From: Fibrobacteria bacterium
GTDB taxonomy: Bacteria > Fibrobacterota > Fibrobacteria > UBA11236
Assembly (NCBI GenBank): GCA_043745805.1
Contig: JAYTSD010000045.1
Span: 134,081-198,080, forward strand
Direction: 5' to 3'
DNA: 64,000 nucleotides
Shown: piece by piece, positions 2 through 63,219 of the stretch
How positions within the stretch are numbered: position 1 is the first letter of the stretch
How the letters are laid out: each line of letters opens with the position of its first letter
Position numbers and translations under genes: made by a program
Notes under the pieces: model-generated
The model's input: only the letters and a program-made list of their open reading frames with translations
Database searches by the model: none
What the model was told of the DNA's origin: nothing

Positions 2-922
2 AATGGTGGGCAAGCTTTGGAAAGTTACTATGGTGCGCCACATTTTTTGATGAGCGCTGGAGGTCAGTACACGGCATATGCGGGACGGAATTTTCCTACG
101 CAGGGTTTTTGGTTAAAAAAAGCGCCTTGGGTTTATGATGTGGTAAGTCGTTCGAGTTCGGTCATTTTAGATCCGGCTATTAAGCAACCTTATGCTTTAA
201 CGGATATTCTGCATTTTAAAGGCGCACAATGGAAAGCCAATAATTTAGCTCTGCATCAAAATTTTCTGTATGGTTATGCCGAGGCTAGCCATCGTAAGGA
301 TTGGCCACAAGCTATTCCGAGTGATTGGCAACAAGATGGGGAAATTATGGATGGCGGAGGATTTGAATTTCGCTTTTATGATCAAAGCCGGCAAGGCGTA
401 TTTATAGTGCTAACGCGCTTGAAAAACCTGCCTTCATGGCGGTTTTGGGAGCGAACTTCTACGGTAAGAGGCACTATCGAAGTGGTGGATACGGCGGAAG
501 CTCATTCCCTAGTTCTTTTTAAGGCAAAAATGCGCCAACAAAACATGCAAACATTAGGTAATCTATTTACTGCAAAACGGTTATATACCACCTACAAGGG
601 TGTTAAATTAACGCTTAATCCAAGCTATGATAATACCCATACGGGCATTGTAAAAATACAAAGCCCACAAGATAAGGCGATTTGGAAACAAGGGTTATCT
701 CCAGTATTCAAAAAAAGTAATAGCTTATTGCAGGTGAATTGGATACAAGCCGATGGCTTATTAGGGCAGGAAATTGCCTCTGGAGATGGTCAAGGTAACT
801 TACAGGTGATTAATCCGCATTTGCAGCAAGAATTAAATATTTGCTTTAAAGAATGGTGGAATCCATGGATAGTTATGCAGGCTTGGCCGGTCCTTGAAAA
901 CAATATCAATAATGTGAAATGA
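2..922 (+). CDS. hypothetical protein, 5'-partial (C-terminal part of a gene starting upstream of the window)
   Basis: Frame is open from position 2 (NGGQALESYY...), so the TTG at 17 is probably internal; no family motif recognised. Confidence 0.6.
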   Translation, partial: NGGQALESYYGAPHFLMSAGGQYTAYAGRNFPTQGFWLKKAPWVYDVVSRSSSVILDPAIKQPYALTDILHFKGAQWKANNLALHQNFLYGYAEASHRKDWPQAIPSDWQQDGEIMDGGGFEFRFYDQSRQGVFIVLTRLKNLPSWRFWERTSTVRGTIEVVDTAEAHSLVLFKAKMRQQNMQTLGNLFTAKRLYTTYKGVKLTLNPSYDNTHTGIVKIQSPQDKAIWKQGLSPVFKKSNSLLQVNWIQADGLLGQEIASGDGQGNLQVINPHLQQELNICFKEWWNPWIVMQAWPVLENNINNVK

Positions 923-1094
923 ATAAATTTTAATACTTAAAAGTAAAATACCAGTTAAAATGGTGAATTCAGAGGAAAATCCAAAGGTTTTGTGTTTCCG
1001 ATTGGCGTCGGCTTCAAATGGCTACCTTAAAAAATCGTATTTGTAATCAAAATGTATGAAGACAGATTTTTTTATTTAGGTGATCTTTATAATA

Positions 1095-1220
1095 GGGTCA
1101 TCGCAGAAAATGTGGGGACCCGAAAAAATCAATGAATGCTGCTGGGGTACATTTGGAAGGACCCTGGTCACTCGAGGAAAAAGCCCGCGCAACGCTTTTA
1201 AACCCGGCAGCATTCGGATT
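1095..1220 (+). ncRNA. candidate structured small RNA in a convergent intergenic region
   Basis: TATAAT at 1088-1093, then hairpin GGGTC..GACCC (1095-1121) and a 13-bp stem GAATGCTGCTGGG/CCCGGCAGCATTC (1134-1146/1203-1215). G-U wobbles form only on the + strand. GC-rich relative to its flanks. Confidence 0.3.
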
Positions 1221-1225
1221 TACTT

Positions 1226-2602
1226 TTAACTCTCTTCGTGAAAATCAATTTTTGCATCCGCATGCACACTGAAACTTCCCTGTCCATTGATTACGATATG
1301 TAAACCAATTTTTTGTGTTTCTAATTTTGCTTTTAAACGATATAAGCGAATTTCAAAATTTGGTTTCTTTTGTCCGGCTAAAAGATTTTGATCTTTTTTG
1401 AAACTGCGATATTCAAATTCCTTTTTGCCTTTGTGAATCAATTCAATTAAAATATTGCGTAGTATTTTTGCAGAAACCGTTTTTAAAAAAATTTTTCCAT
1501 TTAAAATGAGTTGTACTTCTTGAGGTCGATAAATAAAAACAATATTCGCTTCAAGCTGACTAATTAAATTTTGATGCTTGCGCATTAATGCTCCAGCAAA
1601 AATCTTTTCATGTTGTGCCGCATCTTCGACTAAGTGCTTGAGAAATAGGCCATTTTTTAACTGGACTTTTTGATGCTTAACACAAGTCATGTATATAGGA
1701 GCGCTGTATACACACTGGGCGTGGAGCAATATGCGCTGGCGTAAGGGGCAGAAAAAATCCTTTTCCATAAGGATTACTTGCGCTGCGGGAATTTTATATT
1801 TCGCTAAGCTTAACTCATGGCTTTTTAAAAAATCAGTGAAGGCTATTTTGTGACCGTAACATTCACCGTTTATCCATAATTGTTGACCTTTAACGCGTAC
1901 GGAATGATCGGGTAAAATATTATTTATAGAACGAATATCAGATAAATATTGCAACTGTGCAAAAGGCGCCAAGCCTAAAATTTTGGGAGCTTTTAAAATT
2001 TGGGGGCCGACTACAAAATCAAAATTAAAATTAAAGGCATGGGTAAAGGTTTTGTCGGGAATATAAACTAAATAGGATTGTACTGATTTTTTTCCCTCCA
2101 CCTTTTTTACGCGGCGATGAATATGCCCTGGCAAATATTTTTCCGTACACACCGAAATCAAATCAAAAACCATATCATGTGTATCCGTGGCATTGAAGGC
2201 CTTTTGCATCAAGGGATAAAACCAAGCTAAAATTTCTTTACCAGGAAAATAGGTAGCGGCATTATTTCGATAAAGCAGTTTTTCTATGAATTTATTTGGA
2301 GAAACCCCCTTGCTGATTAAAAAAGGTTCCAAATCATTGACCACATAATAATTCCATCGCAATGGAATTTTTCCTTCACAGTGCCAAAGAAAATGCAGCA
2401 GCTCGGCGCCAATCAATATTTTATCGGGATAAACAATAGGGTGTGCTTCCCAAAACTCTAAAATCCATTCCCGTGGAAATAATTGCAACATAGTCACATA
2501 CGAGGCGCGGTGAAAATCGTGAATGGTTAAGGGATCCTGCATGAGATAGCGGGTTTGTTCAAGGGGCGCTTCGTTATCTATCAGCAGTGCTTCTTTGATC
2601 AT
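1226..2602 (-). CDS. putative transcriptional regulator: uncharacterised N-terminal domain plus C-terminal winged-helix-like domain (paralogue of 2617-3969)
   Basis: 458-aa ORF with GGAAAG RBS-like element. C-terminal KILRNIL..EFEY..NFEIRLYRLKAKLE..GQGSF pattern resembles an OmpR/PhoB-like wHTH. Collinear similarity to the neighbour (WFYPLM, FNFDFV, CPLR.RI.L). Confidence 0.6.
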   Translation of the reverse strand: MIKEALLIDNEAPLEQTRYLMQDPLTIHDFHRASYVTMLQLFPREWILEFWEAHPIVYPDKILIGAELLHFLWHCEGKIPLRWNYYVVNDLEPFLISKGVSPNKFIEKLLYRNNAATYFPGKEILAWFYPLMQKAFNATDTHDMVFDLISVCTEKYLPGHIHRRVKKVEGKKSVQSYLVYIPDKTFTHAFNFNFDFVVGPQILKAPKILGLAPFAQLQYLSDIRSINNILPDHSVRVKGQQLWINGECYGHKIAFTDFLKSHELSLAKYKIPAAQVILMEKDFFCPLRQRILLHAQCVYSAPIYMTCVKHQKVQLKNGLFLKHLVEDAAQHEKIFAGALMRKHQNLISQLEANIVFIYRPQEVQLILNGKIFLKTVSAKILRNILIELIHKGKKEFEYRSFKKDQNLLAGQKKPNFEIRLYRLKAKLETQKIGLHIVINGQGSFSVHADAKIDFHEES

Positions 2603-2616
2603 AGGAGTTGCTTTCC

Positions 2617-3969
2617 TTAACCTATTTCGCGGAAATCGATTTTCCGATCACAGATTAAAGTAAAAGTTCCGCGTCCATTTTTCACTATACTTAGGCCTAA
2701 TTTTTCTTGGTCGAGTTTTTCCATTAGGCGATAAAAACGGATTTCAAAATTGGAATTTTTTTGGTGGTTGGATATTTCAAAATCGGCTTTGAACTCTTTA
2801 TACTCAAATTCAGTTTTACCCTCGCGAGTATAGGCGAGAAGAATATCCTTTAAAATTTTGGCGGGGGTATTTTTTACAAAATGTTTTCCATTGAGGGATA
2901 AACTTTGATCTTGAGCATGATAGAACGCACGTATTTTATTTTCTAATTGCTTTACTAATTCCCCATGTTTTTTTTCCAATTCACTTTTGGAAAAGGATTT
3001 TTCTAAATCGGCATCTTCAACCAAATGTTGTAAGAAACTGATTTTTTTCTTTTGCAACTTATGATGTTGCATGCAAATCATGTATAGCGGCGCACCATAA
3101 GCGCAATTGGCATAGAGGACAATGCGTTTGCGGAGTGGACAATAATAATCTTTGTGCAAATGAAATACTTCGGCATCGGGCGCATCAATTTTGCCTAAAT
3201 CAATATCCAATTTTTTCAATAAAGCATAAAAAGTGGTTTTTTTGCCAATCCAATCCCCTTCGACATAGCAATCCGAGCCTTTATATTCGGCCTTTCCGGT
3301 CCATAGTACATCGTCTACGGTGCGTGTATCGCAAATATATTCAACGTTATTAAAAGCAGGCAAAGAAAGAATCTTGGAACTGGATTTGAATTGTTCTCCG
3401 GCCACAAAATCGAAATTAAATTTTACCATATTGCTAAAATTTTTATCGCTACAATAAACCAAATAAGAATGTACCACATTTTCTTTTTCAACTTTTTTGA
3501 CACGGCGACTTATATGTTGCGGTAATAATTTCGAGGTAAAAATATCAATCAGTTTATAAGCCATATCCCAAATATCATAGGCATTAAATACTTTGCCCAT
3601 AAGCGGATAAAACCAAGACAGTATAGTTATACCTGGGATATACGTAGCTTGATTGTTACGGAAGAGAATTTTTTTAATGAAGCTATTTCCGTAAATACCT
3701 TTGGAAATTAAAAAGGGTTCAATAGCGTCACCCGTGGTATAATCCCAAGTGACAGGGACTTTATTATTCGCTTGCCATAAATGCTTAACTAATTCATCAT
3801 CCGCAATGAGGTGTGTGCCCTCTTGAATAGGATATGCAGACCAAAACTCTTCCAGCCAATCCAATGGAAACTCAGCCAGCATGGTAAGATAAACGGAGCG
3901 TTGAAAATCATTAGTGGTTTTTAGCTTTTTATAAGCATTAGTCCATTTATTAATGAGCTGTTGTCCCAA
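2617..3969 (-). CDS. putative transcriptional regulator: uncharacterised N-terminal domain plus C-terminal winged-helix-like domain
   Basis: 450-aa ORF, TTG start with AGAGG RBS. Tail KILKDILLAYTREGKTEFEYKE..NFEIRFYRLMEKL..KNGRGTFTL. Confidence 0.6.
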   Translation of the reverse strand: MGQQLINKWTNAYKKLKTTNDFQRSVYLTMLAEFPLDWLEEFWSAYPIQEGTHLIADDELVKHLWQANNKVPVTWDYTTGDAIEPFLISKGIYGNSFIKKILFRNNQATYIPGITILSWFYPLMGKVFNAYDIWDMAYKLIDIFTSKLLPQHISRRVKKVEKENVVHSYLVYCSDKNFSNMVKFNFDFVAGEQFKSSSKILSLPAFNNVEYICDTRTVDDVLWTGKAEYKGSDCYVEGDWIGKKTTFYALLKKLDIDLGKIDAPDAEVFHLHKDYYCPLRKRIVLYANCAYGAPLYMICMQHHKLQKKKISFLQHLVEDADLEKSFSKSELEKKHGELVKQLENKIRAFYHAQDQSLSLNGKHFVKNTPAKILKDILLAYTREGKTEFEYKEFKADFEISNHQKNSNFEIRFYRLMEKLDQEKLGLSIVKNGRGTFTLICDRKIDFREIG

Positions 3970-4095
3970 TGTAGCCTCTTTAAACGATTCAAATGCCTTG
4001 TCAAATCTGCATTTTTTTAAAGCGGCTTAAACCCTAAATTCGGAGAAAAATAGGGTAAGAGAAAGTAAAATTAAGGTTTTTTAAGTTTTGTAAAT

Positions 4096-4761
4096 TTAAA
4101 ACTTGGCGAAGTAAATTAAGCCTAAAACCAAATTCAAATACTCTTCACTTTTGTTTTCTAAGTCCAATGGCTTATTAATGAATTCATAAAAACGGTTGTG
4201 ACGCAAGCTTTTATACAATAAATTGCTATCGTCATCGGGATTGCCGGTGATTAAAATGAATTTCAAATAAGGTTTGGTTTTATGCACTTCATCGCAAAGT
4301 TCATTACCTCCCATAAGAGGCATAACTTCATCGGTTATGACTAAAGCGACATCGGAATTAGTTCTTATAAATTCCAAGGCTTCCAATGGTTTAGTAAAAG
4401 TTTTGAGAGTTATTTTTTTGCCTAATTTGCGATTGAAAACAAAAAGATTGTCTTCTTCATCGTCGACATAAACTACGAGAGGGTTTTTATTAGTGGTAAC
4501 AAAAAGTTTTTCCAAGTGCTCCAATAGTTTTGCAACGGTAAGATAGGGAAACTCGGTTGGGTTTAAATAATTTTCCAGGTTTAAACGTTTTCCCTCATAT
4601 CGTTTTTCCAATTCATCTTTAATTTCAGAAAAGGCAACTTGATCCACACCAATATCTTCTAGAAAAACTTTATTCGTTTCGCATTCCAACAATGCGGGTA
4701 GTGTTGCGCCATTGTTTTTAAAAACATCATTTAATATTTCATATACTTCTTGTTTTGCCAT
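4096..4761 (-). CDS. ACP-like domain fused to a response-regulator receiver (REC) domain
   Basis: N-terminal about 85 aa have an ACP pattern (FLEDIGVDQV..EIKDELEKRY..TVAKLLEHL). REC motifs YVDDEE, ITDEVMP, ITG and INKP are intact. ATG at 4761 preferred over TTG at 4773. Confidence 0.75.
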   Translation of the reverse strand: MAKQEVYEILNDVFKNNGATLPALLECETNKVFLEDIGVDQVAFSEIKDELEKRYEGKRLNLENYLNPTEFPYLTVAKLLEHLEKLFVTTNKNPLVVYVDDEEDNLFVFNRKLGKKITLKTFTKPLEALEFIRTNSDVALVITDEVMPLMGGNELCDEVHKTKPYLKFILITGNPDDDSNLLYKSLRHNRFYEFINKPLDLENKSEEYLNLVLGLIYFAKF

Positions 4762-4804
4762 GAGAACCCTCAATTATTGTATGCCATCAAAATTAAACCA
4801 CAAT

Positions 4805-5980
4805 TTAAATCATTAAACTTTCAATTTTTAATTCCTTAATAGCTTCTGCGGTAACGATAGCCGTTTTTATAATAGCTTCACGAGTAATTTCGGCGTGAAC
4901 TGAAAAACGAGCAAAACTTTTATCACGCGCTGAAGCTGGAGGAGCAAATACTGAAAATAAAATTCCTTTTTCTTTCATTTTTCCATAAAGGGCGCTAGCT
5001 GTATAGGGGCCTTTAAAAAATACGGATACGATTTGACAATTACTTGGACCAGTGGGAATACCACGTTGATTCAACTCATCCCTTAAAAGTTGAGCCATAT
5101 CCATGCAATGCTGCGCTCTTTGCGGTTCCCGTAAAATAACATTCAAAGCGGCTCTGTGACCCGCAGAGTTTGGTTCAGAAGGTGAAGAACTAAAAATAAT
5201 AGAGTGACAACGAAATCTTAAAAAACGAATGGCTTGTAGGCTTGCTGCGATAAAGCCTCCATTGCCGCCAATAGCTTTGGACAAGCTAACCGTTCGAAAA
5301 GGTACTCTATCTTGTAACCCTAATGAAACGGCTAAACCACCGCCATTTTCTCCAATCATTCCAAAGCTATGGGCTTCATCTAGTACCAAGGCGCAGTTAT
5401 ACTTTTCACATAAAGCAATGTAGGTGGGAAGATCAGCAACTGATCCATCAGTGCTATAATAAGCATCGATGCAAACAATTCCCGTTCCATCTTTTTTGAT
5501 TCTTTTTTCCAAATATTCCGGATCATTATGTTTGATTAAAACAGGTCTTCCTGAAGAAAGTTTCGCACCGGACCATAATGACGCATGCGCTTGATGATCA
5601 ATGTAAATAGGCAAATCAGGTGTAGCTATTGCTTCTAATAAACCGACATTAGCGCACCAACCAGCAGTAGTTACGATTACGTCTTCGCTTTTGAGGCTTT
5701 TTTTTAATACTTCCCCAAATTTTCCATGTTCACCGGTGTCGGCTCCAAAAACCAATGAGGCTACGCTACCTGTGCCAATATTGTTATTCGCTTCATCCTT
5801 GGCTGCTATTACCTCGGGATGGCGAGACAAGCGCAAATAATCATTTTGATGTAATTCAATATAGGCTTTTGAATCTCCAGGTTGATCGAATGGATTCGGT
5901 TGATGGCCATCCATAAAATTCAACCAGTCCTCATAATGTTTGGTTAACCATGGCGTTGTATCTAAATCATCGGAAAGCAT
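4805..5980 (-). CDS. cqsA: PLP-dependent alpha-oxoamine synthase, CqsA/LqsA-like (alpha-hydroxyketone autoinducer synthase)
   Basis: QNDYLRL, AGWCANVGLL, YIDHQAHASLWSG, KHND, DAYYST, DEAHS and SLSKA (PLP Lys). The GWxANVGLL and AHxSLWxG signatures are CqsA/LqsA-like rather than BioF-like (NHASLIDG). Confidence 0.75.
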   Translation of the reverse strand: MLSDDLDTTPWLTKHYEDWLNFMDGHQPNPFDQPGDSKAYIELHQNDYLRLSRHPEVIAAKDEANNNIGTGSVASLVFGADTGEHGKFGEVLKKSLKSEDVIVTTAGWCANVGLLEAIATPDLPIYIDHQAHASLWSGAKLSSGRPVLIKHNDPEYLEKRIKKDGTGIVCIDAYYSTDGSVADLPTYIALCEKYNCALVLDEAHSFGMIGENGGGLAVSLGLQDRVPFRTVSLSKAIGGNGGFIAASLQAIRFLRFRCHSIIFSSSPSEPNSAGHRAALNVILREPQRAQHCMDMAQLLRDELNQRGIPTGPSNCQIVSVFFKGPYTASALYGKMKEKGILFSVFAPPASARDKSFARFSVHAEITREAIIKTAIVTAEAIKELKIESLMI

Positions 5981-6122
5981 GGAACGGTCCTTTTATTATC
6001 TGTATAAATGGTTTGGATTTTGTGGTTTTTTGTGTATGTGAATGAATGTCTTGCTCAAATATGCTTCCGGGCCTTAATATTGCATTTGAAGCTAGAATTT
6101 TTGGCTTTTGAGGAAAAGGTTG

Positions 6123-7682
6123 ATGCTGAGAAAATTCTTTTCGAAGGATTTTTGGAATGGCCGTTCGGAATACCACCGAATGCTTTTTAATACTGACTAT
6201 TCCTTTCAAAAACGTTTTATGATGGTACTGGTATATATAGGCGCACCAGCCAATATATTTTTTCATTACTATGAACAAGATCAAGGTTATCAAGATTCTA
6301 CCATTGGACGTTATGCTATTTCTCTGCTATTAGTTACACTAGTTTTCCTACCGAAGATTATCAAGCAAAATAAATGGCAAATATCGTACTGGGAACTCAC
6401 ACTTTTCATTTTTTTCCCATGTATGAACACCGCCTTCATGCTGATGAATCATGTTAATCAGTATTGGTTTTCCACCTTTATTCTGGATATGGTATTTTTG
6501 GGCATTTTTACCAAATGGTATATGATCCCTTTCCATTACATTTTTGGTAGTGCGGCAATAACATGGTGGTACTTTCACAATACAGGATATGATGCGAAAT
6601 TATTTCAGGCCAATTTAAATGCGCATGTGGCAGCCTTTCTAGGAACATGCGTTGCATCGGGAGTCGTTTTAACTATTGAATATGTTAATAAAAAATCTAC
6701 TGAAGCTAAATTAGCGCTATCTAAAGCGGAACATGATAGGCTCAGAACCTTAGAGCTACAAAAATCAAATGAAGAATTAAAAAAACGTGAGGAAATCATT
6801 AAGGTGTATGTGCGCCCATCCTTGTATGAAGAGTTAGCGGCGGGACATGACCCTCTCAAATTTCAACCTATTATGCTGCCTAAGGCGATTATGTTTTGCG
6901 ACATTCGCGACTTCACTTATTTGACGGAAATTCTTACCCCTTACGAAAAACAAACTTTTCTCAATCAATATTTCACTTTGATGAATCATGCCATTGTCAA
7001 TAATGAAGGCGAAGTAGATAAAATTGTGGGCGATTGTATTATGGGTCTTTTTCCTAATGGCCGCGCAGCCGTACATGCCGCATTGGCCATGCGTAAGGCC
7101 TTGCACACATTTAATAATATGATGTACAACAGTGGTCGTCGAAAAATCCCTAATGGTATTGGCATAGCCAAGGGCGAAGTGATGTTAGGCAATTTCGGAT
7201 CTAATGAAAAACTAGATCGCACGGTGATTGGTGAAGCGGTGAATATAGCTTCACGCTTGGAATCTAAAACCAAAATGTATGGTGTGGAAATTGTGGTGAC
7301 TCAGGATGTGGTCGATGAAATGCAGGGCTATCCCTATATGCGTTGGATTGACAATGCTAAGGTAAAAGGTTCGAGCCGACCTTTGCAGCTTTATGAAATT
7401 TATGGACATCAACCAGATGAAGTGATTGCCTATAAAGAAAAGACTAAAGTCATATTCGAAAAGGCTTTGACTATTTATTTCAATAAAGGTTTTAAAGATG
7501 CTTTACGCATGTTTCAATCTATGTTATCCGAGGTTCCACCGCATAAATACAAAGCGAATGCACCCATGGATAATATTCTCAGCTATTATATTGAGCATTG
7601 CCGAACTTGGGTGAATGACTCCGCAGGGGCTTGGGACTTGCGGAATAAATGGGATGGCATTCATGAGTTTAAAGAAAAGTGA
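6123..7682 (+). CDS. membrane class III adenylate cyclase with an N-terminal CqsS/LqsS-like multi-TM sensor domain
   Basis: About 6 hydrophobic segments including P..TAFMLMN-x5-W; coiled-coil linker; cyclase motifs MFCDIRDFT, VDKIVGD and DRTVIGEAVNIASRLE. ATG at 6123 follows GAGG/AAGG. Confidence 0.85.
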   Translation: MLRKFFSKDFWNGRSEYHRMLFNTDYSFQKRFMMVLVYIGAPANIFFHYYEQDQGYQDSTIGRYAISLLLVTLVFLPKIIKQNKWQISYWELTLFIFFPCMNTAFMLMNHVNQYWFSTFILDMVFLGIFTKWYMIPFHYIFGSAAITWWYFHNTGYDAKLFQANLNAHVAAFLGTCVASGVVLTIEYVNKKSTEAKLALSKAEHDRLRTLELQKSNEELKKREEIIKVYVRPSLYEELAAGHDPLKFQPIMLPKAIMFCDIRDFTYLTEILTPYEKQTFLNQYFTLMNHAIVNNEGEVDKIVGDCIMGLFPNGRAAVHAALAMRKALHTFNNMMYNSGRRKIPNGIGIAKGEVMLGNFGSNEKLDRTVIGEAVNIASRLESKTKMYGVEIVVTQDVVDEMQGYPYMRWIDNAKVKGSSRPLQLYEIYGHQPDEVIAYKEKTKVIFEKALTIYFNKGFKDALRMFQSMLSEVPPHKYKANAPMDNILSYYIEHCRTWVNDSAGAWDLRNKWDGIHEFKEK

Positions 7683-22392: not shown

Positions 22393-22650
22393 TTGAACAT
22401 AGAAGTAGCAAAAAAAGTCAAAGAGATAATCGCAGAAGTGGTTGGTTTTGACACCAAAGATATCGGTGACGGTGATAAATTCATTCCCGATTATAAAATC
22501 ACTTATGCGGAACGCAAAGCCCTTCTGGCTCAATTAAATGATGCCTTTCAAAGGGAAACCAGTTTTGAAGATTTCTGCAAATTGGATAATGTGATGGCCG
22601 TAATAGAGGCTTATTCCACAGCGGCTACAAGCGCTGATTCCGAAGACTAA
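22393..22650 (+). CDS. acyl-carrier-protein-like small acidic protein lacking the DSL serine motif
   Basis: KVKEIIAEVVG..I....F..D pattern of ACP; DYKITYAE stands in place of DLGADSLD. AAGGA RBS and TTG start. Confidence 0.6.
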   Translation: MNIEVAKKVKEIIAEVVGFDTKDIGDGDKFIPDYKITYAERKALLAQLNDAFQRETSFEDFCKLDNVMAVIEAYSTAATSADSED

Positions 22651-45717: not shown

Positions 45718-47259
45718 TTGTTAATAATTAACTCATCGCCAAAATTTTCCCAAAGTAATTTTATTCTAGCGATAATTCTATTCGCATCGCTTTATGCAAA
45801 GTCAGTATTTGCCAAAACCATAATCTATTCGGCCCCAGTTGGCATACAAGGTGCATCCGATGTAAAAGTATTAGTCGATGGAAAGCCACTTTTCGTTTAT
45901 AATACACCAGTCAATTTTAATCGTAACTATAGTGAAAATCCGAATTTGGAAATGACTCCTATGGCTTACTTCGATTTTTCAGGCCAGGTTAATCTACAAG
46001 TTATTTTTTCGGGTAAGAAAATTGATAAGGTGGACATACGACCTAAATCTTATGGTATAGCCTCGCAGATAAAATTAGATACGGTGCAATTTTTACTTTC
46101 TCATCCTGGGCAAATAACGTTGGAGATCAATGGCGATTTGCATCGGGCGATACATATTTTTGCCAATCCCGAAGAAATTAATCCGCCCAAACAGGGGGAT
46201 GCAAATGTGCAATACTTTGGACCAGGAATTCATCGGCCTGGGAAAATTCAAGTTCCCACCGGAGGTACGGTTTATATTGCTGGTGGCGCTGTAGTTTATG
46301 GATATATACGCGCACAAAATGTGAAGCAAGTCAAAATTTTAGGCCGCGGCATTATAGATGGGGGAGAATACGATCGTTGGAGGGATGTAATCTATCCCAT
46401 TGGATTAGAGTATTGCCAAGATTGTTCTATGGAAGGCTTGATAATTTTAAATCCGGCAGCTTGGACTTTGCAAGTTTATCAGTCGCAAAATATAAATTTA
46501 CAAAACATAAAAATTATTTCGGCACGCGCAAATTCCGATGGCATAACTATTCAATCCTGTCAGCATGTTAAAGTCAGTAATTGTTTTATGCGAACTTGGG
46601 ATGATAGTTTTGTGATTAAAGATTATGAGGGTAACTCCAAAGATATTACCGCTACGGATTGTGTGATCTGGACGGATTTGGCGCAGTCTCTGGAAATTGG
46701 TTATGAAACTCGTGGCGATTCGTTAACCGATATTAATTTTAAAAATATAGATGTGATACATAATTTACATAAGCCAGTATTAAGTATACATGCAGGGGAT
46801 CAAGGTATTATCCGTAATGTGCATTATGAAAATATTCGAGTGGAAGATGCCACCAATAAATTAGTGGAACTCTGGATTGGGCAAGCAGTATGGAATCACG
46901 GCGCGTTGCGTGGAAAAATTTTGGATATTTATTATAAAAACATTCAAGTTACCGGTGGCCCTTTTGCGGATTCGTATATGTCAGGCTTTGATGGCGCACA
47001 TAATATTGACAATATTAATTTTGAAGGATTAAATATTTTAGGGCAAGATATTTTAAATGCAAATGCAGGAAAATTCAATTTAGCCTCATTTGTTACTAAT
47101 GTGCATTTTACTAAGGCTACCGTTGGGCTATCTCCGCTTTTTCATAAAAACCAAAAAAATGATTTAAGATTAAAAATGCATGGTCATCAATGGGTGGTAA
47201 GCTCTCCCGATCTGAATAATGAGTGGACGGATTTAAAAGGACTATGGAAGAAACAGTAA
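45718..47259 (+). CDS. secreted right-handed beta-helix glycoside hydrolase (GH28-like)
   Basis: Signal peptide; YFGPGIH, VYIAGGAVV, GRGIIDG, NSDGI and WDD motifs. Confidence 0.75.
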   Translation: MLIINSSPKFSQSNFILAIILFASLYAKSVFAKTIIYSAPVGIQGASDVKVLVDGKPLFVYNTPVNFNRNYSENPNLEMTPMAYFDFSGQVNLQVIFSGKKIDKVDIRPKSYGIASQIKLDTVQFLLSHPGQITLEINGDLHRAIHIFANPEEINPPKQGDANVQYFGPGIHRPGKIQVPTGGTVYIAGGAVVYGYIRAQNVKQVKILGRGIIDGGEYDRWRDVIYPIGLEYCQDCSMEGLIILNPAAWTLQVYQSQNINLQNIKIISARANSDGITIQSCQHVKVSNCFMRTWDDSFVIKDYEGNSKDITATDCVIWTDLAQSLEIGYETRGDSLTDINFKNIDVIHNLHKPVLSIHAGDQGIIRNVHYENIRVEDATNKLVELWIGQAVWNHGALRGKILDIYYKNIQVTGGPFADSYMSGFDGAHNIDNINFEGLNILGQDILNANAGKFNLASFVTNVHFTKATVGLSPLFHKNQKNDLRLKMHGHQWVVSSPDLNNEWTDLKGLWKKQ

Positions 47260-58242: not shown

Positions 58243-59181
58243 TTAAATCTCAACTCTGTTTGATATATAGGGTTCAATTTCTTTACGGTTTTTTAGTACA
58301 ATATGTTGCGATGTAGATATTTTGTTTTCTACATCTCTAAGTCCAAGCCTTTGAAGCGCATACCACAATAAAGACTGTCGGCATTGCATTTCTGCTGTCC
58401 CATTTTCCATTCCATAATCGTAAGCTATGATTTTTTGTTGGGCCTCTGATAGTTTTGGATTGGGTACAATAACAAGATTAATAATATTTTTCCATTCGGT
58501 ATCATTGTGAGGAAGTCTCATAACCTGATTTGAAAATGAACATTTTTGAATGCGGGCAATAACAAAATCTCGATAGTCTTTTCTTGTGTGGCAATAAGCA
58601 CGTATGTGAAATCTAAAACCATCATATGCTAATGTATGCGGACTTATTGTTCTAGACCCAGGTTCTTGTTTGCTAATAGATTGATACTCAATTTCAAGCG
58701 ATTTTTTTTCACGAATTGCTTGAAGCAACATGAAGAGAACATCGGAAGATAATTGACGATATGGATTCGGAACAGTATCAAATGGTGGATACCAACCTAT
58801 GAAACTACTATTTTCCGGGATTACTTTATCAGCAATCGCAAGAAGATCATTTAAAAACTGGGAAGGCTGAGACGATGAATATTTTGCATGAAATAAATCT
58901 GTCTTTTGATAAACTTTTAAGGCAGGATCATATTTTACATTATCTGGAAAAAGCTCTTTGTACCTCGTGATATCTAATGATGCTTGAGGAACAGAGATAT
59001 TAAAAAACTCACAGAGATCAGAGCGATTAATTTTTCCTTCCCAACAAAGACGAAAATCGATGAATTCTAGCCGCTGATCTTGGCTCCATTTTCCATTTTT
59101 TGAGGGGTTACTGATTGAAGAAAAATCTCTTTGATGCGTTAATTCGTTCAAATTCGGCATTTTAATTCCTGGTCTTGTCAT
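58243..59181 (-). CDS. WYL-domain transcriptional regulator (CapW/BrxR-like)
   Basis: N-terminal wHTH RLEFIDFRL.WEGKINRSDL..QASLDI; WYL domain YQS..RTISPH..RFHIRAYC..DFVIARI. Confidence 0.9.
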   Translation of the reverse strand: MTRPGIKMPNLNELTHQRDFSSISNPSKNGKWSQDQRLEFIDFRLCWEGKINRSDLCEFFNISVPQASLDITRYKELFPDNVKYDPALKVYQKTDLFHAKYSSSQPSQFLNDLLAIADKVIPENSSFIGWYPPFDTVPNPYRQLSSDVLFMLLQAIREKKSLEIEYQSISKQEPGSRTISPHTLAYDGFRFHIRAYCHTRKDYRDFVIARIQKCSFSNQVMRLPHNDTEWKNIINLVIVPNPKLSEAQQKIIAYDYGMENGTAEMQCRQSLLWYALQRLGLRDVENKISTSQHIVLKNRKEIEPYISNRVEI

Positions 59182-59263
59182 GTAACCAATTTATAATTAA
59201 TATAAAAATTATACGAATAAAAACTATACGTATAAACCGGTATTCCGGAGAAAGGAAAGTACA

Positions 59264-60439
59264 ATGTCAGCCACTATCAGTTTTTTCCCCGTTGGTAACG
59301 GAGATATGACCCTAATAAAACTTGCTGATACCGATGCAACAACACTTCTAATTGATGTCAATATTAGGCAAGCAGCAGATAATCCTAAAGAGAATGTTCG
59401 TGATGTTGCTAAGGACTTACGAGAACGGCTTAAGAAGGACCGACATGGACGACCTTACGTTGATGCATTGCTGCTGAGTCATCCAGATCAAGATCATTGC
59501 TCAGGTCTCTTAAGACATTTTCATCTTGGCCCTATAACTGAATATGCCGATGATAATAAAAAAGAGTTCGAAAAAAAAATCGTTGTGCGGGAACTATGGT
59601 CTTCACCGATAGTTTTTCGCCGTGCAAGTAAAGAGCATCCATTATGTGAAGATGCAAAAGCTTTCAATGCAGAAGCAAAGCGTCGAGTGAAGGTAAATAA
59701 AGATCAAAATTTTCAAAATGTTGAAGCAGGTAATCGCATTCTCATACTTGGTGAAGATGAGAATGGCAAAACAGATGATCTGAGTTCCATTCTAGTAAAA
59801 GTCGATGAAGTTTTTTCAAAGATCAATGGTAAGACCACTTTGTTTTTGGAAGCTAGGTTATTAGCCCCTCTTCCTAAAACCGATGACGCGGATGAAGATA
59901 CCCTTTCTAAAAATCATTCAAGCACAATTCTAAATTTGAAAATTGCTGCGAGCTTAACAGAGTCCGATGGATGTCGGTTCCTTACTGGAGGAGATGCTGA
60001 AGTAGCAATTTGGGAAAGAATTTGGATCCGACATAAGAATGAACCCAACGTTTTGACTTATGATCTACTTCAAACGCCGCATCATTGTTCATGGCATAGC
60101 TTGTCTTATGATAGTTGGTCAGAAAAACATAAAGAAGCGAACCTTTCTAAGGATGCGCATTCAGCGCTTTCACAAGCTAGGTCTGGAGCAAGGATTGTAT
60201 CAAGTAGTAAGCCAATTCTCGATGATGATAATGATCCACCATGTATTGGTGCCAAAAATGTATACGTAGAAATAATTAATCAAGTTAACGGAATATTCTT
60301 ATGTACTGGAGAAAATCCACATAAAGATAATCCGGAACCTATTGAATTTGAGGTTAGCCAATTAGGTGTTTCATTCATTAGAAAAAATATTTCGGCTGTA
60401 TCTATTATTACTTCTTCACCAGCGCATAAGGCGGGGTAA
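59264..60439 (+). CDS. metallo-beta-lactamase-fold hydrolase (ComEC/Rec2-like) ending in Gly
   Basis: FPVGNGD, SHPDQDH, GGDA and PHHCS motifs; C-terminus SSPAHKAG. Confidence 0.88.
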   Translation: MSATISFFPVGNGDMTLIKLADTDATTLLIDVNIRQAADNPKENVRDVAKDLRERLKKDRHGRPYVDALLLSHPDQDHCSGLLRHFHLGPITEYADDNKKEFEKKIVVRELWSSPIVFRRASKEHPLCEDAKAFNAEAKRRVKVNKDQNFQNVEAGNRILILGEDENGKTDDLSSILVKVDEVFSKINGKTTLFLEARLLAPLPKTDDADEDTLSKNHSSTILNLKIAASLTESDGCRFLTGGDAEVAIWERIWIRHKNEPNVLTYDLLQTPHHCSWHSLSYDSWSEKHKEANLSKDAHSALSQARSGARIVSSSKPILDDDNDPPCIGAKNVYVEIINQVNGIFLCTGENPHKDNPEPIEFEVSQLGVSFIRKNISAVSIITSSPAHKAG

Positions 60440-62707
60440 TTGGATAAAAAGTATTTCGAACTGGGTGAGTTATGGCCTGACTTGGATCCCAAGCATCTAC
60501 AGTATGAAGCATCAAGGCAACTTTTGGAAGCATGCCTGCGAAACCAGTACTATGAAGTATTAGAACTTCGTAATGCTAAGGGCTGCGATGTGATTGTTGT
60601 TTGCTGCGGAGACGGTTCGGTACCTTCTCGTAATACTATCGGTATACAAGCGAAGGAACGATTAGCAATAGTATATCACCCTGACACAAAACCAATACCA
60701 TACGGCGTTTACGCGACCCGAATCGAATTTCCGGCAACTCTTCACCAAAATCAAGTTCGTCAGGGTATGCCACGTTCACTTTGCCTTTACTTTGAATCTT
60801 GGACACATGTAGAGAGAAGTTGGACTCCTCAACGATATCTCGAAAGAATACTTTGGTGGATAAAAGAAACGGCCAAAGGCACTCTTCATCGGAACGACCA
60901 ACCACTGGAACAGTTTTATTTTGACTCAAAATTCCAAGTATTGTTACCGCCTGATTATATTCGTTTGGTTTTAGAGCCCAGTAAAACATTAATTCTATAT
61001 GAAGTTCCTCATGGACCAGAAGGCCCGAAGATAGTTCGTGGTTCTTTTATTGATAAAGAAAAAGAGCTTCTTAATACCGATCCTTTTATGGATTGTATAA
61101 TATTGAGTATTCCCCCAGTTATTCATGGTTCGGTTCAACCTTATCCATGTAGCCTTGGAGAATTGGAATCTCATTTGAAAGATAGAGGATCTAATGTTTT
61201 TTCTCTTTTGATGGAAAAAATCAAAACAATGGTTCCTTCCAATGGGCTTCCAATTAAACGTCAAAAATTGAAGTATACATTGCTGATTATAAATTTGGCC
61301 ATCATAAGAGAATATGGTTCAGCTCCAGAAAAAAATGATTTAAAAGGATTTATTATTGCTGACGATCTAGTTGGGATCGGACTTGCATCTGGAACTCTAT
61401 TTGATGGTCGTGATCAAAAGGCGTACGTAGAGCAATTTCAAAAAAATATAAATCATTGGGAGAGTATTGAACTTGAGCCAGTTGATGTTAGGGTGTCGCT
61501 TAACAGAAAAGATGCACGTAAGGCATCGGGAGTTTCAGAAGATGGTGCTGAGTTTAATGGTGTTTTAGCAGGGGTTGGTGCACTTGGCGGGCTCTTGGCT
61601 GATTTATGGTCGCGCGAAGGTTGGGGATTATGGACAATAGTGGATGATGATACCTTAAGAGCTCATAATATTGTTAGGCATATTGGAAAAGATGAATTAA
61701 TTGGTCTCCCAAAAGTTGAAGCAGTTCAAAGAATAATCGAAGCTAATTATCCACCAGGACATGTACATTTTCCTGCTATTGTTTCAAAAATTACAGATTT
61801 TAAAAATGAAGATGTTGTAAATGCTATTAAAGCATCTTCATTACTAATTGATATTACTACAACATTGGAAGTGCCAAGAGAATTATCAATCAAAGATGAT
61901 ATTCCTCGTTCGGTGTCTACTTTTATAACGCCATCTGGAATGGCCTCTGTACTTCTTGTAGAGGATAAAAACCGCAAAATTCGTTTATCGTCCCTTGAAG
62001 CACAATATTATAGAGCGATATTAAATAATTCATTTGGACAAAATCATCTTCATGGTCATTTAGGAGATATGTGGGTTGGTGCAGGATGCAGGGATATTTC
62101 AGTGGTACTCTCTAACGAACTGATTAATTTTCATGGTGCATTATTGGCAAGACAGATTAGGAAACTTGTAATAATGCCCGATCCTCGAATTATAATTTGG
62201 AGCTTGCAAGATGAATCAGGTGCTCTTGAGGCAAAGGAAATTGAAATTCACTCCCCAATAATTTTAAATTTTGGAAAATGGCAAGTTACTTTAGACGAAG
62301 GATTGCAGAGAAAAATCAGATCGATGAGGAACGCAAATTTACCAAATGAAACAGGAGGGGTTATTCTAGGTTACTTTGATCAAAAACTTAATACTATTAG
62401 TCTCGTTGATGTCTTACCTGCACCGCCAGATAGTGAAGCTGATGAATCTGGTTTTACCCGTGGAATCGAGAATCTCAAAGAATCCATTGAAAACTGTGCG
62501 CAAAAGACAGGAAGAATTGTTGATTATATTGGCGAGTGGCATTCGCATCCAAGAAACTGTTCTTCTCAGCCGAGCCTATTGGACATAAAGCTTTTTGCCC
62601 AACAAGCAAAAATAATGGCTAGTGAAGGGCTTCCTGTCTTAATGGCAATTGTTGGTGAGAATGACGAGCAATTCTTTCTCTGTGAAGACAAATCGGATAT
62701 ACATTAA
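60440..62707 (+). CDS. prokaryotic E2 - E1(ThiF) - JAB fusion protein
   Basis: E2-like FP..LHQN..SLCLY; ThiF GVGALGG, DDD.L..HNIVRH and GAGC; JAB PNETGG and GEWHSHP..PS..D. Confidence 0.88.
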   Translation: MDKKYFELGELWPDLDPKHLQYEASRQLLEACLRNQYYEVLELRNAKGCDVIVVCCGDGSVPSRNTIGIQAKERLAIVYHPDTKPIPYGVYATRIEFPATLHQNQVRQGMPRSLCLYFESWTHVERSWTPQRYLERILWWIKETAKGTLHRNDQPLEQFYFDSKFQVLLPPDYIRLVLEPSKTLILYEVPHGPEGPKIVRGSFIDKEKELLNTDPFMDCIILSIPPVIHGSVQPYPCSLGELESHLKDRGSNVFSLLMEKIKTMVPSNGLPIKRQKLKYTLLIINLAIIREYGSAPEKNDLKGFIIADDLVGIGLASGTLFDGRDQKAYVEQFQKNINHWESIELEPVDVRVSLNRKDARKASGVSEDGAEFNGVLAGVGALGGLLADLWSREGWGLWTIVDDDTLRAHNIVRHIGKDELIGLPKVEAVQRIIEANYPPGHVHFPAIVSKITDFKNEDVVNAIKASSLLIDITTTLEVPRELSIKDDIPRSVSTFITPSGMASVLLVEDKNRKIRLSSLEAQYYRAILNNSFGQNHLHGHLGDMWVGAGCRDISVVLSNELINFHGALLARQIRKLVIMPDPRIIIWSLQDESGALEAKEIEIHSPIILNFGKWQVTLDEGLQRKIRSMRNANLPNETGGVILGYFDQKLNTISLVDVLPAPPDSEADESGFTRGIENLKESIENCAQKTGRIVDYIGEWHSHPRNCSSQPSLLDIKLFAQQAKIMASEGLPVLMAIVGENDEQFFLCEDKSDIH

Positions 62708-62724
62708 TAAAAAAGGAACTTTGC

Positions 62725-63219
62725 ATGTACCAAAATTTAATAGCAGTTACTTGCAATTTTTGTAAACGTCGCATTTTTTTGGAAAATCTATCTTCAAATC
62801 TTGTTATACAATGTCAGAAGTGTGGGCATCGCTCAATCATTAAAAAAACATCTTCCGATGTACCTGTATCTCAGTGGGAAGCCTTTTTTAAAGGTATGGC
62901 ATACGTAGCTGTAGGTGCAACCGCGGTAACAGTTGGGTATAAGTTTTTTCAAGCTTTAACTGATGAAGATTTTGGTGATGGAGAATTCCCACGTTGGGTT
63001 CGTCATGAAATTAAGCAAAAGCATAAAAAATCATACGGTTGCTATTGTCTTGGTTGCAACATGCGAGTTCGAGACAAAGATTTGGAAGTAGATCATATTG
63101 TTGCTTTCCGAAATGGAGGGCGAACATCGAGAGCCAATGCGCAGATTTTATGTCGATCATGCAATGCGCAAAAGGGCGCACGTAACAGTGTATTCGATTA
63201 CATTAGAGGACGTTGCTAA
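62725..63219 (+). CDS. HNH endonuclease with N-terminal Zn ribbon and hydrophobic helix
   Basis: CNFC..CQKC; CLGC..EVDHI..GG..N.QILCRSCN..KG. Confidence 0.8.
   Translation: MYQNLIAVTCNFCKRRIFLENLSSNLVIQCQKCGHRSIIKKTSSDVPVSQWEAFFKGMAYVAVGATAVTVGYKFFQALTDEDFGDGEFPRWVRHEIKQKHKKSYGCYCLGCNMRVRDKDLEVDHIVAFRNGGRTSRANAQILCRSCNAQKGARNSVFDYIRGRC

Follow-up and report, generated by a model that had tools for sequence, protein, structure and literature searches.

The window, a 64,000-nucleotide stretch of a Fibrobacteria bacterium genome (contig JAYTSD010000045.1, positions 134,081 to 198,080), encodes on its reverse strand a 221-residue response regulator of unusual build. Its N-terminal part is a homologue of acyl carrier proteins (ACPs), which has no serine at the phosphopantetheine attachment site, and its C-terminal part is an intact receiver domain (REC). 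The gene, termed here ACP-REC, is operonic with a gene for a pyridoxal phosphate (PLP)-dependent, acyl-thioester-using alpha-oxoamine synthase (AOS). The interpretation that we tentatively prefer is that of a response regulator with a degenerate ACP output module, namely a phospho-switched pseudo-carrier that would dock on the synthase and gate it. The identity of the protein is secure; the mechanism we infer.

Homology searches of 870 candidates yielded 315 relatives of the window protein at E <= 1e-3, of which the 120 best share 48–61% identity with it, mostly over 81–100% of the query. Conservation was assessed in 160 distinct sequences, comprising these 120 relatives, the open reading frames (ORFs) of related loci, and the paralogue encoded in the same genome. 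The related loci (n = 31) are those encoding a relative that either matched in both domains or was truncated at the end of a contig.

All sequence features tested identify the protein as a response regulator. Residues 96–202 match the Pfam model Response_reg (PF00072) with E 5.1e-10 and 39.9 bits, over the cut-off of 30.2. The catalytic residues D100, D101, D144 (codon at 4330–4332), T172, and K197 are all present and are invariant in 160/160 family members, which bears out an earlier reading of the sequence alone (the sequence-only reading) that the acidic pair, the phospho-accepting aspartate, the threonine, and the lysine are retained. None of the residues that phosphorylation requires is missing from the receiver, and phosphotransfer is predicted. 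In the AlphaFold2 (AF2) model this part is an alternating beta-alpha fold with five strands (95–99, 118–122, 138–144, 167–172, and 193–196). The full-length model gave 405 Foldseek matches at E <= 1e-3; those listed are receiver domains, including 3hv2, 3kcn, and 2rjn at E about 1e-7.

Residues 36–42 read D-I-G-V-D-Q-V, with Gln41 (codon at 4639–4641 of the window; ttg on the forward strand, caa on the reverse strand) in the place of the phosphopantetheine serine, an ACP pattern already recognized in the sequence-only reading. Searches with the single protein reported the receiver only: no other domain was matched in Pfam and NCBIfam, and the search of PDB sequences with the 221-residue protein returned receivers only. 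The N-terminal domain of the window protein scores E 0.16 and 12.7 bits against PF00550, under the cut-off of 20.8. Carrier homology, to NodF and to tandem-ACP proteins, was seen only with a family profile, which was built from 46 N-terminal domains of the window and the related loci. Among PDB sequences, this profile matched NodF (1fh1) with E 1.9e-4 over the full length of the domain (1–92 against 1–90), and the phosphopantetheine serine of NodF (LGIDSL) paired with the Gln41 column. PF00550 itself matched 14 of the 46 members at E <= 10, the best with E 9.5e-5.

When 1.84 billion representatives were searched exhaustively by HMMER with the N-domain profile, 40 proteins were retrieved at E <= 1e-3. 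Half of them were family members or fragments thereof (46–233 residues); the other 20 were long proteins (677–5894 residues), each matched in 3–7 stretches. Four of the long proteins were scanned for domains. P0137 contains five phosphopantetheine-binding (PP-binding) domains and a reductase, and P0153 contains three PP-binding domains and a ketosynthase; no PP-binding domain was found on the scan of P0136 and P0146, whose matches are probably spurious. The repeats of P0137 read LGIDSVKLGEILAVVRERYG and are near the IGVDQVAFSEIKDELEKRYEG of the window protein, including the arginine that is invariant in the ACP-REC family.

The predicted fold agrees with this homology. The AF2 model of residues 1–92 (predicted local distance difference test score, pLDDT, 81.4) has helices at 3–16, 41–54, 63–66, and 76–90, and helix II begins exactly at residue 41, the position of the phosphopantetheine serine. 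Comparison with 48,161 chains by VIA-align placed ACP 1vku first, at a root mean square deviation of 2.6 Å across 81 residues and a Z of 9.0, a middling score according to the note supplied with the tool, by which values under about 13 are common for helical models. Among the 50 matches listed, 40 were titled acyl or peptidyl carriers or carrier-containing synthases, the others being chains of organellar complexes. Foldseek with the N-terminal domain alone gave no match at E <= 1e-3, its rows being mostly ACPs at E 0.3–2. We accept the carrier fold because the sequence profiles and the fold evidence from VIA-align agree; residues 1–92 are a true acyl carrier protein homologue with a predicted four-helix ACP fold. 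A reading of the helical domain as a histidine phosphotransfer (Hpt) module was rejected, no conserved histidine being found in its invariant or near-invariant columns. Elsewhere in the window, a 91-residue frame at about 22414–22608 on the forward strand shows a weak PP-binding match (E 0.0023), likewise without a D-S-L motif.

Serine occupies the phosphopantetheine column in 0/160 family members. The residues found there are Leu (75), Ile (31), Val (14), Pro (9), Glu (9), Asp (8), Met (7), and Ala (2), with single occurrences of Gln, Phe, Tyr, and Gly. The loss of serine is a family trait, not a lesion of a single copy. The homologues are thus not normal carriers, and the alternative raised in the sequence-only reading, that most of them might bear serine, does not hold. 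Since no family member has this serine, the domain is predicted to be incapable of being loaded at the canonical phosphopantetheine site and of carrying an acyl group. In the N-terminal domain, Arg54 is conserved in 160/160 sequences, Gly57 in 149, Gly38 in 143, and Asp40 in 134. In the N-domain alignment, column identity averages 40%. The net charge of the helix II region averages -3.7, and Asp or Glu is found at position 46 in 150/160 and at position 50 in 149/160 members; ACPs have an acidic recognition helix II, which the family matches. The family therefore resembles the ACPs (PF00550; NodF and the tandem ACPs of synthases for polyketides and polyunsaturated fatty acids) in sequence and fold, in the G-x-D that precedes helix II, and in an acidic helix II ending in R-(F/L)-x-G, as in P0137. 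It differs from them in lacking the attachment-site serine, the defining ACP feature, and in the fusion of the domain to a receiver, free-standing forms of it never having been found. A length-limited profile search for free-standing or serine-bearing relatives of the domain gave three matches, all of them fragments of the fused family; of the 13 short matches obtained in the two N-domain profile searches together, the 10 whose sequences were inspected were fragments of the same kind.

The gene, which the sequence-only reading had placed next to the synthase, stands directly behind the synthase gene, and the same order on the same strand recurs in 19/31 related loci. The distance from the synthase stop to the regulator start is -8 to +54 nt in 19/19 of these loci, with an overlap in four, and 43 nt in the window. 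In PDB sequences the window synthase is closest to Vibrio cholerae CqsA (2wk8, E 2.2e-50, vs 1.9e-41 for serine palmitoyltransferase), and its PLP-binding lysine is aligned (SLSKAI to SLAKTF of CqsA). The best NCBIfam model, NF005526, gave 289.8 bits, under its equivalog cut-off of 428, and the product of the synthase is therefore not assignable from this match. The neighbouring synthases fall into three subclasses: CqsA/LqsA-like (window, L001, L003, L004, L006, L007, L014, and L021; partial in L002), serine-palmitoyltransferase/BioF-like (L005, L008, L009, L010, L012, L015, L016, L022, and L023), and PRK07505-like (L017 and L019). True ACP genes were sought in the 31 loci by tblastn with six carrier-like stretches of the same genome and one P0137 repeat; none was found at E <= 0.01, a search that divergent ACPs would escape.

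The two domains of the regulator differ in their relation to the synthase. In 19 regulator/synthase pairs (171 comparisons), the identity of the N-terminal domain tracks that of the synthase (Spearman 0.77; identity 0.40 for pairs of one synthase class and 0.26 for pairs of different classes) and that of the receiver does not (Spearman 0.14; identity 0.66 vs 0.64), with the reservation that the 171 comparisons are not independent and that co-inheritance together with unequal evolutionary rates could alone produce such a pattern. In the regulator tree, the deepest fork has weak support (56/80). The pattern fits a synthase-specific N-terminal domain joined to a receiver that is served by one common kinase.

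These conservation data also bear on two other explanations. In the first, only the receiver matters, as a CheY-like diffusible partner or as a phosphate sink for a GAF-domain kinase, and the N-terminal domain survives as a relic in decay or as an appendage that aids stability or dimerisation. The receiver is indeed far better conserved (pairwise identity about 0.65 vs 0.26–0.40), the mean column identity of the N-domain alignment is 40%, and several paralogues occur per genome. However, the domain is of full length in every complete member, Arg54 is invariant and Gly38, Asp40, and Gly57 are strongly conserved, and forms without the domain or stand-alone forms were not found, the three short matches of the length-limited search being fragments. 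A relic would, moreover, not co-diverge with the synthase. We consider this explanation improbable. In the second, the cofactor-less helical bundle has kept its acyl pocket and binds a free hydrophobic signal or an acyl intermediate non-covalently, modulating phosphorylation or dephosphorylation of the receiver; the protein would then serve as a cytoplasmic receptor for the signal and would not regulate an enzyme. ACP folds enclose acyl chains, the former serine column is mostly hydrophobic (Leu, Ile, or Val in 120/160), the position of the domain N-terminal to the receiver is unusual for an output domain, and variation with the synthase class is what a product-specific pocket would show. Yet helix II has retained an acidic surface of the kind by which partners are typically recognised, and the invariant Arg54 and the Gly38/Asp40 motif point to a conserved protein interface, not to a variable ligand pocket. 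We know of no precedent for an ACP-fold ligand-sensing input domain, although no literature search was aimed at it, and regard a sensor of this kind as very unlikely.

The sequence-only reading also reported that the window has no histidine kinase. This is true of the window, where no histidine-kinase domain was found in the 51 ORFs of at least 100 residues, but not of what lies beyond it. A GAF-domain histidine kinase of 720–780 residues adjoins the regulator in other loci, and the window's own genome (G000) has an orthologue of it on another contig (C27:30255–32411; 719 residues, 44–49% identical over about 715 residues), which is why the window is without one. This protein has a soluble N-terminal region followed by two adjacent hydrophobic helices at 192–229. 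Its homologues, at 44–62% identity, lie within 6 kb of the regulator in 8/31 loci: convergent and immediately downstream in L004, L006, L007, L017, and L018, one gene further in L002, a few kb off in L008, and as a fragment at the end of L001. As the genome has 45 HATPase_c matches, an orphan regulator would not be unusual in itself.

The occurrence of both genes was surveyed in 201 genomes of the same phylum, counts that include one unpublished genome (G194). An ACP-REC match at E <= 1e-40 was found in 14/201 genomes, and the GAF kinase at E <= 1e-80 in 17/201. The kinase is present in 13/14 ACP-REC-positive genomes vs 4/187 negative ones, a figure that is evidence of co-inheritance among related, non-independent genomes and not a statistical test. 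In six genomes regulator and kinase share a contig, 40 bp to about 5 kb apart. By family, ACP-REC is found in 10/21 genomes of the window's own family, in 0/78 of the largest other family, and in 3 elsewhere; several genomes carry 2–6 copies. Of the 31 related loci, 28 belong to assemblies whose titles give Fibrobacterota, Fibrobacteria, Fibrobacteres, or Chitinivibrionales; for the remaining three the titles give Pseudomonadota, Polyangia, and 'uncultured bacterium'. The distribution of the family is patchy, and Fibrobacterota assemblies account for almost all of it.

On contig C27 (24000–38000; L080), the kinase gene is divergent from an operon encoding a FeeM-like protein (525 residues), a haem-oxygenase (HO)-like iron enzyme (220 residues), and a second FeeM-like protein (533 residues). 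The same FeeM-like/HO-like/FeeM-like block follows the kinase in L006 and L018, which suggests a second signal pathway, of the N-acyl-amino-acid type, under the same system. The conserved set is larger than the window shows: it comprises the synthase, a regulator of type A (see below), the GAF kinase, the FeeM-like/HO-like/FeeM-like operon, a membrane-associated class III nucleotide cyclase, and a regulator of type B. In the window's genome this set is divided between two contigs, C27 and that of the window (C45).

Three subtypes of the regulator can be distinguished. Type A, which includes the window protein, has about 223 residues and the motif G-x-D-(L/I/V); type B has 233 residues and H-V-(S/T)-(D/E) in place of this motif; the third is marked by G-L-D-P. 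The type B copy of the window's genome lies 3.3 kb left of the window (C45:130032–130733, reverse strand; L079:8033–8734), with 233 residues and the motif H-I-Q-K. Genes for a XerC/D-like recombinase, a glycosyltransferase, and an uncharacterised 700-residue protein, the C-terminus of which is window ORF 2–922, stand between it and the cluster in the window. At L009:7884–8935, L022:7850–8901, L026:5992–7043, L029:1227–2278, and L030:5995–7046, a gene of the third subtype is followed directly by one for a 128-residue protein, which at E <= 1e-6 is SnoaL-like in 3/5 loci. Genes for a methyltransferase, desaturase, or epimerase adjoin, and no AOS gene is found there.

The cyclase gene is divergent from the window synthase, and its homologues, at 46–55% identity, are present in 13/31 loci. 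Type B genes adjoin it in 9 of the 12 loci that hold this type; they lie directly upstream of the synthase in L001 and L003, and beside type A in L018. Such an arrangement is also compatible with the ACP-like domain being a general protein-binding module. The phosphorylated protein would in that case act on the membrane cyclase or on a different enzyme of the cluster, for instance the FeeM-like acyl-amino-acid synthases, and set the output of cyclic nucleotide or of a second signal, not gate the AOS. Besides the recurrence of the cyclase in the window and in 13 related loci and its proximity to type B, this explanation gains from the conserved kinase being divergent from the FeeM-like operon here, in L006, and in L018, and from the fact that the nearest solved receivers include one from an adenylate cyclase homologue (3kcn). 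Against it, type A is tied to the synthase by the short gaps seen in all 19 loci that have this arrangement, the cyclase is encoded on the opposite strand, and the N-terminal domain co-diverges with the synthase subclass. We hold a cyclase adaptor to be unlikely.

Docking of the pseudo-carrier on the synthase, the preferred interpretation, was examined by complex prediction with two synthase copies and the N-terminal domain. The score was 0.59 (runs 0.54, 0.61, and 0.59), compared with 0.00 for the best of three controls, which the tool rates as 'weak support'; agreement between the runs amounts to at least 89% of contacts, with a partner pLDDT of 77 or more. The mark passed here is reached by 116/157 solved complexes and 2/215 mismatched pairs; scores that pass it at 0.60 or below belong to only 18 of those 157 solved complexes and to both of the passing mismatches. 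The sequence-only reading had proposed an ACP mimic that could dock on the synthase, and the complex prediction and the co-divergence of the N-terminal domain both speak for it, if weakly and indirectly.

Several points weigh against this interpretation, in addition to the middling fold scores and the non-independence of the co-divergence comparisons given above. At 0.59 the score lies in a range where, by the tool's own account, predictions are wrong more often than right unless there was prior reason to expect the pair, and the prediction differed from the calibration of the tool in using separately made alignments and two copies. The pairing with the GAF kinase we infer from synteny and co-occurrence among related genomes. 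The regulator has no synthase beside it in 12/31 loci. These loci, among them L025, which is cut at a contig end, carry more divergent copies, adjoining methyltransferases (some of them cyclopropane-synthase-like), a fatty acid desaturase, and a gene resembling type III polyketide synthases; the gene for the 128-residue SnoaL-like protein recurs beside them. The synthase cannot be the sole partner of the family, because type B usually sits beside the cyclase and not directly behind the synthase. Other alpha-oxoamine synthases take acyl-ACP. Characterised CqsA uses S-adenosylmethionine and decanoyl-CoA, not acyl-ACP, according to PMC3376566, and a carrier-docking surface on the window synthase is for this reason not established.

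With these points in mind, the phospho-switched pseudo-carrier would work as follows. The conserved GAF histidine kinase with two transmembrane (TM) helices, encoded on C27 here, would phosphorylate the regulator. The pseudo-carrier would dock on the synthase at the surface that a carrier or thioester donor would occupy, and phosphorylation of D144 would alter this docking, so that signal synthesis would be gated at the protein level and not via transcription. More speculatively, judging from gene content, the membrane cyclase may make a cyclic nucleotide that is read by the GAF domain of the kinase, which would close the loop. A more general proposal, which we regard as doubtful, is that ACP-REC proteins constitute a family of phospho-switchable decoy carriers, exerting two-component control over small-molecule synthases by carrier mimicry at the thioester-donor site. 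Its variants would be matched to the three AOS subclasses and perhaps to other enzymes of lipid or polyketide synthesis, and the whole would be part of a loop linking the membrane cyclase, a GAF kinase that reads the cyclic nucleotide, and the regulator.

Among the known systems that come close is the LqsR/PhcX family, with LqsR from the lqs cluster of Legionella, whose members are response regulators clustered with a CqsA/LqsA-type PLP-dependent autoinducer synthase, as is the window protein. The receiver fold is shared as well: LqsR (6sy9) came sixth among the Foldseek matches (E 4.9e-7), and its sequence was matched weakly (E 1.8e-5). In LqsR, as described in PMC10653808, the receiver comes first and is followed by a degenerate GGDEF-like output domain with a five-stranded beta-sheet. 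The window protein, unlike LqsR, carries its receiver at the C-terminus, preceded by a four-helix ACP homologue. The 'counterpart of LqsR' of the sequence-only reading thus stands as far as the position in the cluster is concerned, and fails for domain order and output domain. ACP-REC is a positional analogue of LqsR, not a member of its family or a homologue of its output domain.

The cluster is similar to the CqsA/CqsS and LqsA/LqsS modules in that the adjacent synthase is nearest to V. cholerae CqsA and keeps the PLP lysine, and differs from them in the sub-threshold NF005526 score. CqsS and LqsS are kinases of the multi-TM type, unlike the associated kinase here with its soluble N-terminal domain, two TM helices, and GAF domain. 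Further differences are the class III cyclase in the cluster and the regulators of sister loci that follow serine-palmitoyltransferase/BioF-like or PRK07505-like enzymes. In receiver sequence, the RpfG-type HD-GYP regulators are closest (2rjn, E 2.3e-10; 3hv2, E 3.7e-7), but the window protein has no HD-GYP or other enzymatic domain, and its partner domain is N-terminal.

The features of the cluster are listed in Table 1. The ACP-REC frame comprises 221 codons from the ATG at 4761 to the stop at 4096–4098, and a GAGGG motif lies 6–10 nt 5' of this ATG. An in-frame TTG at 4773 is unlikely to be the true start, because every one of the 36 aligned homologues starts in the same alignment column as the ATG. 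Scans of 900–6400 for sigma-70 promoters and terminators gave scores no better than those of shuffled sequences.

Table 1. Positions of the ACP-REC gene, its domains, and the neighbouring genes in the window
Feature	Position	Strand	Basis or remark
Type A ACP-REC gene (pseudo-carrier/receiver), 221 residues	4096..4761 (incl. stop)	-	ORF; 315 homologues at E <= 1e-3; AF2 full-length pLDDT 83.9
ACP-like N-terminal domain, residues 1–92	4486..4761	-	NodF profile match, AF2, VIA-align
Receiver (REC) C-terminal domain, residues 93–221	4099..4485	-	PF00072, Foldseek, five catalytic residues
CqsA/LqsA-like PLP-dependent alpha-oxoamine synthase	4805..5980	-	PF00155, E 1.2e-32; 43 nt 5' of ACP-REC
Membrane-associated class III nucleotide cyclase	6108..7682	+	PF00211 at residues 260–421, E 4.2e-15; hydrophobic segments in N-terminal half
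unkA, 450 residues, no known family	2617..3969	-	126 nt downstream of ACP-REC; looser cluster member
unkB, unkA paralogue, 47% identity	1226..2602	-	No known family

The two paralogous proteins UnkA and UnkB, of 450 residues and encoded directly downstream of the regulator, matched no Pfam or NCBIfam family and no PDB sequence. Their homologues flank the regulator in L005, L008, and L019, and a third copy is present in the window's genome (C1, about 45864–47189). As a lead only, their C-terminal 100 residues may, by eye, form an OmpR-type winged helix (ESM Atlas Trans_reg_C clusters, 0.86, sub-threshold). In L012, a gene for a Tae4-like type VI amidase effector (5695–6333, forward strand) lies about 2.4 kb downstream of a family member and is probably an unrelated neighbour. 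Far from the cluster, window positions 58243–63219 encode a WYL-domain protein, an uncharacterised 391-residue protein, a 755-residue protein in which prokaryotic E2, ThiF-like E1, and JAB domains are fused, and an HNH nuclease. This group looks like a ubiquitin-like conjugation module; such modules are linked to phage defence.

Known response regulators act through DNA-binding, RNA-binding, or enzymatic output domains and on a few protein partners. Full-text literature searches returned nothing relevant on a receiver fused to an ACP-like domain, or on a pseudo- or degenerate ACP in such a role, and no earlier description of this architecture seems to exist. We regard the observation as real, the family as well delimited, and the mechanism as plausible but not proven. 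The family also defines a conserved, so far undescribed signalling supercluster in free-living Fibrobacterota, composed of an AOS, two pseudo-carrier regulators, a GAF kinase, a membrane cyclase, and FeeM-like synthases, all parts of which can be expressed and tested in vitro. If the proposed mechanism is true, ACP-REC would be a natural case of a carrier that is catalytically dead and has been put to new use as a regulator. If the regulator gates the CqsA-like synthase, autoinducer production in these bacteria would be controlled post-translationally, which would constitute a new kind of quorum-sensing feedback.

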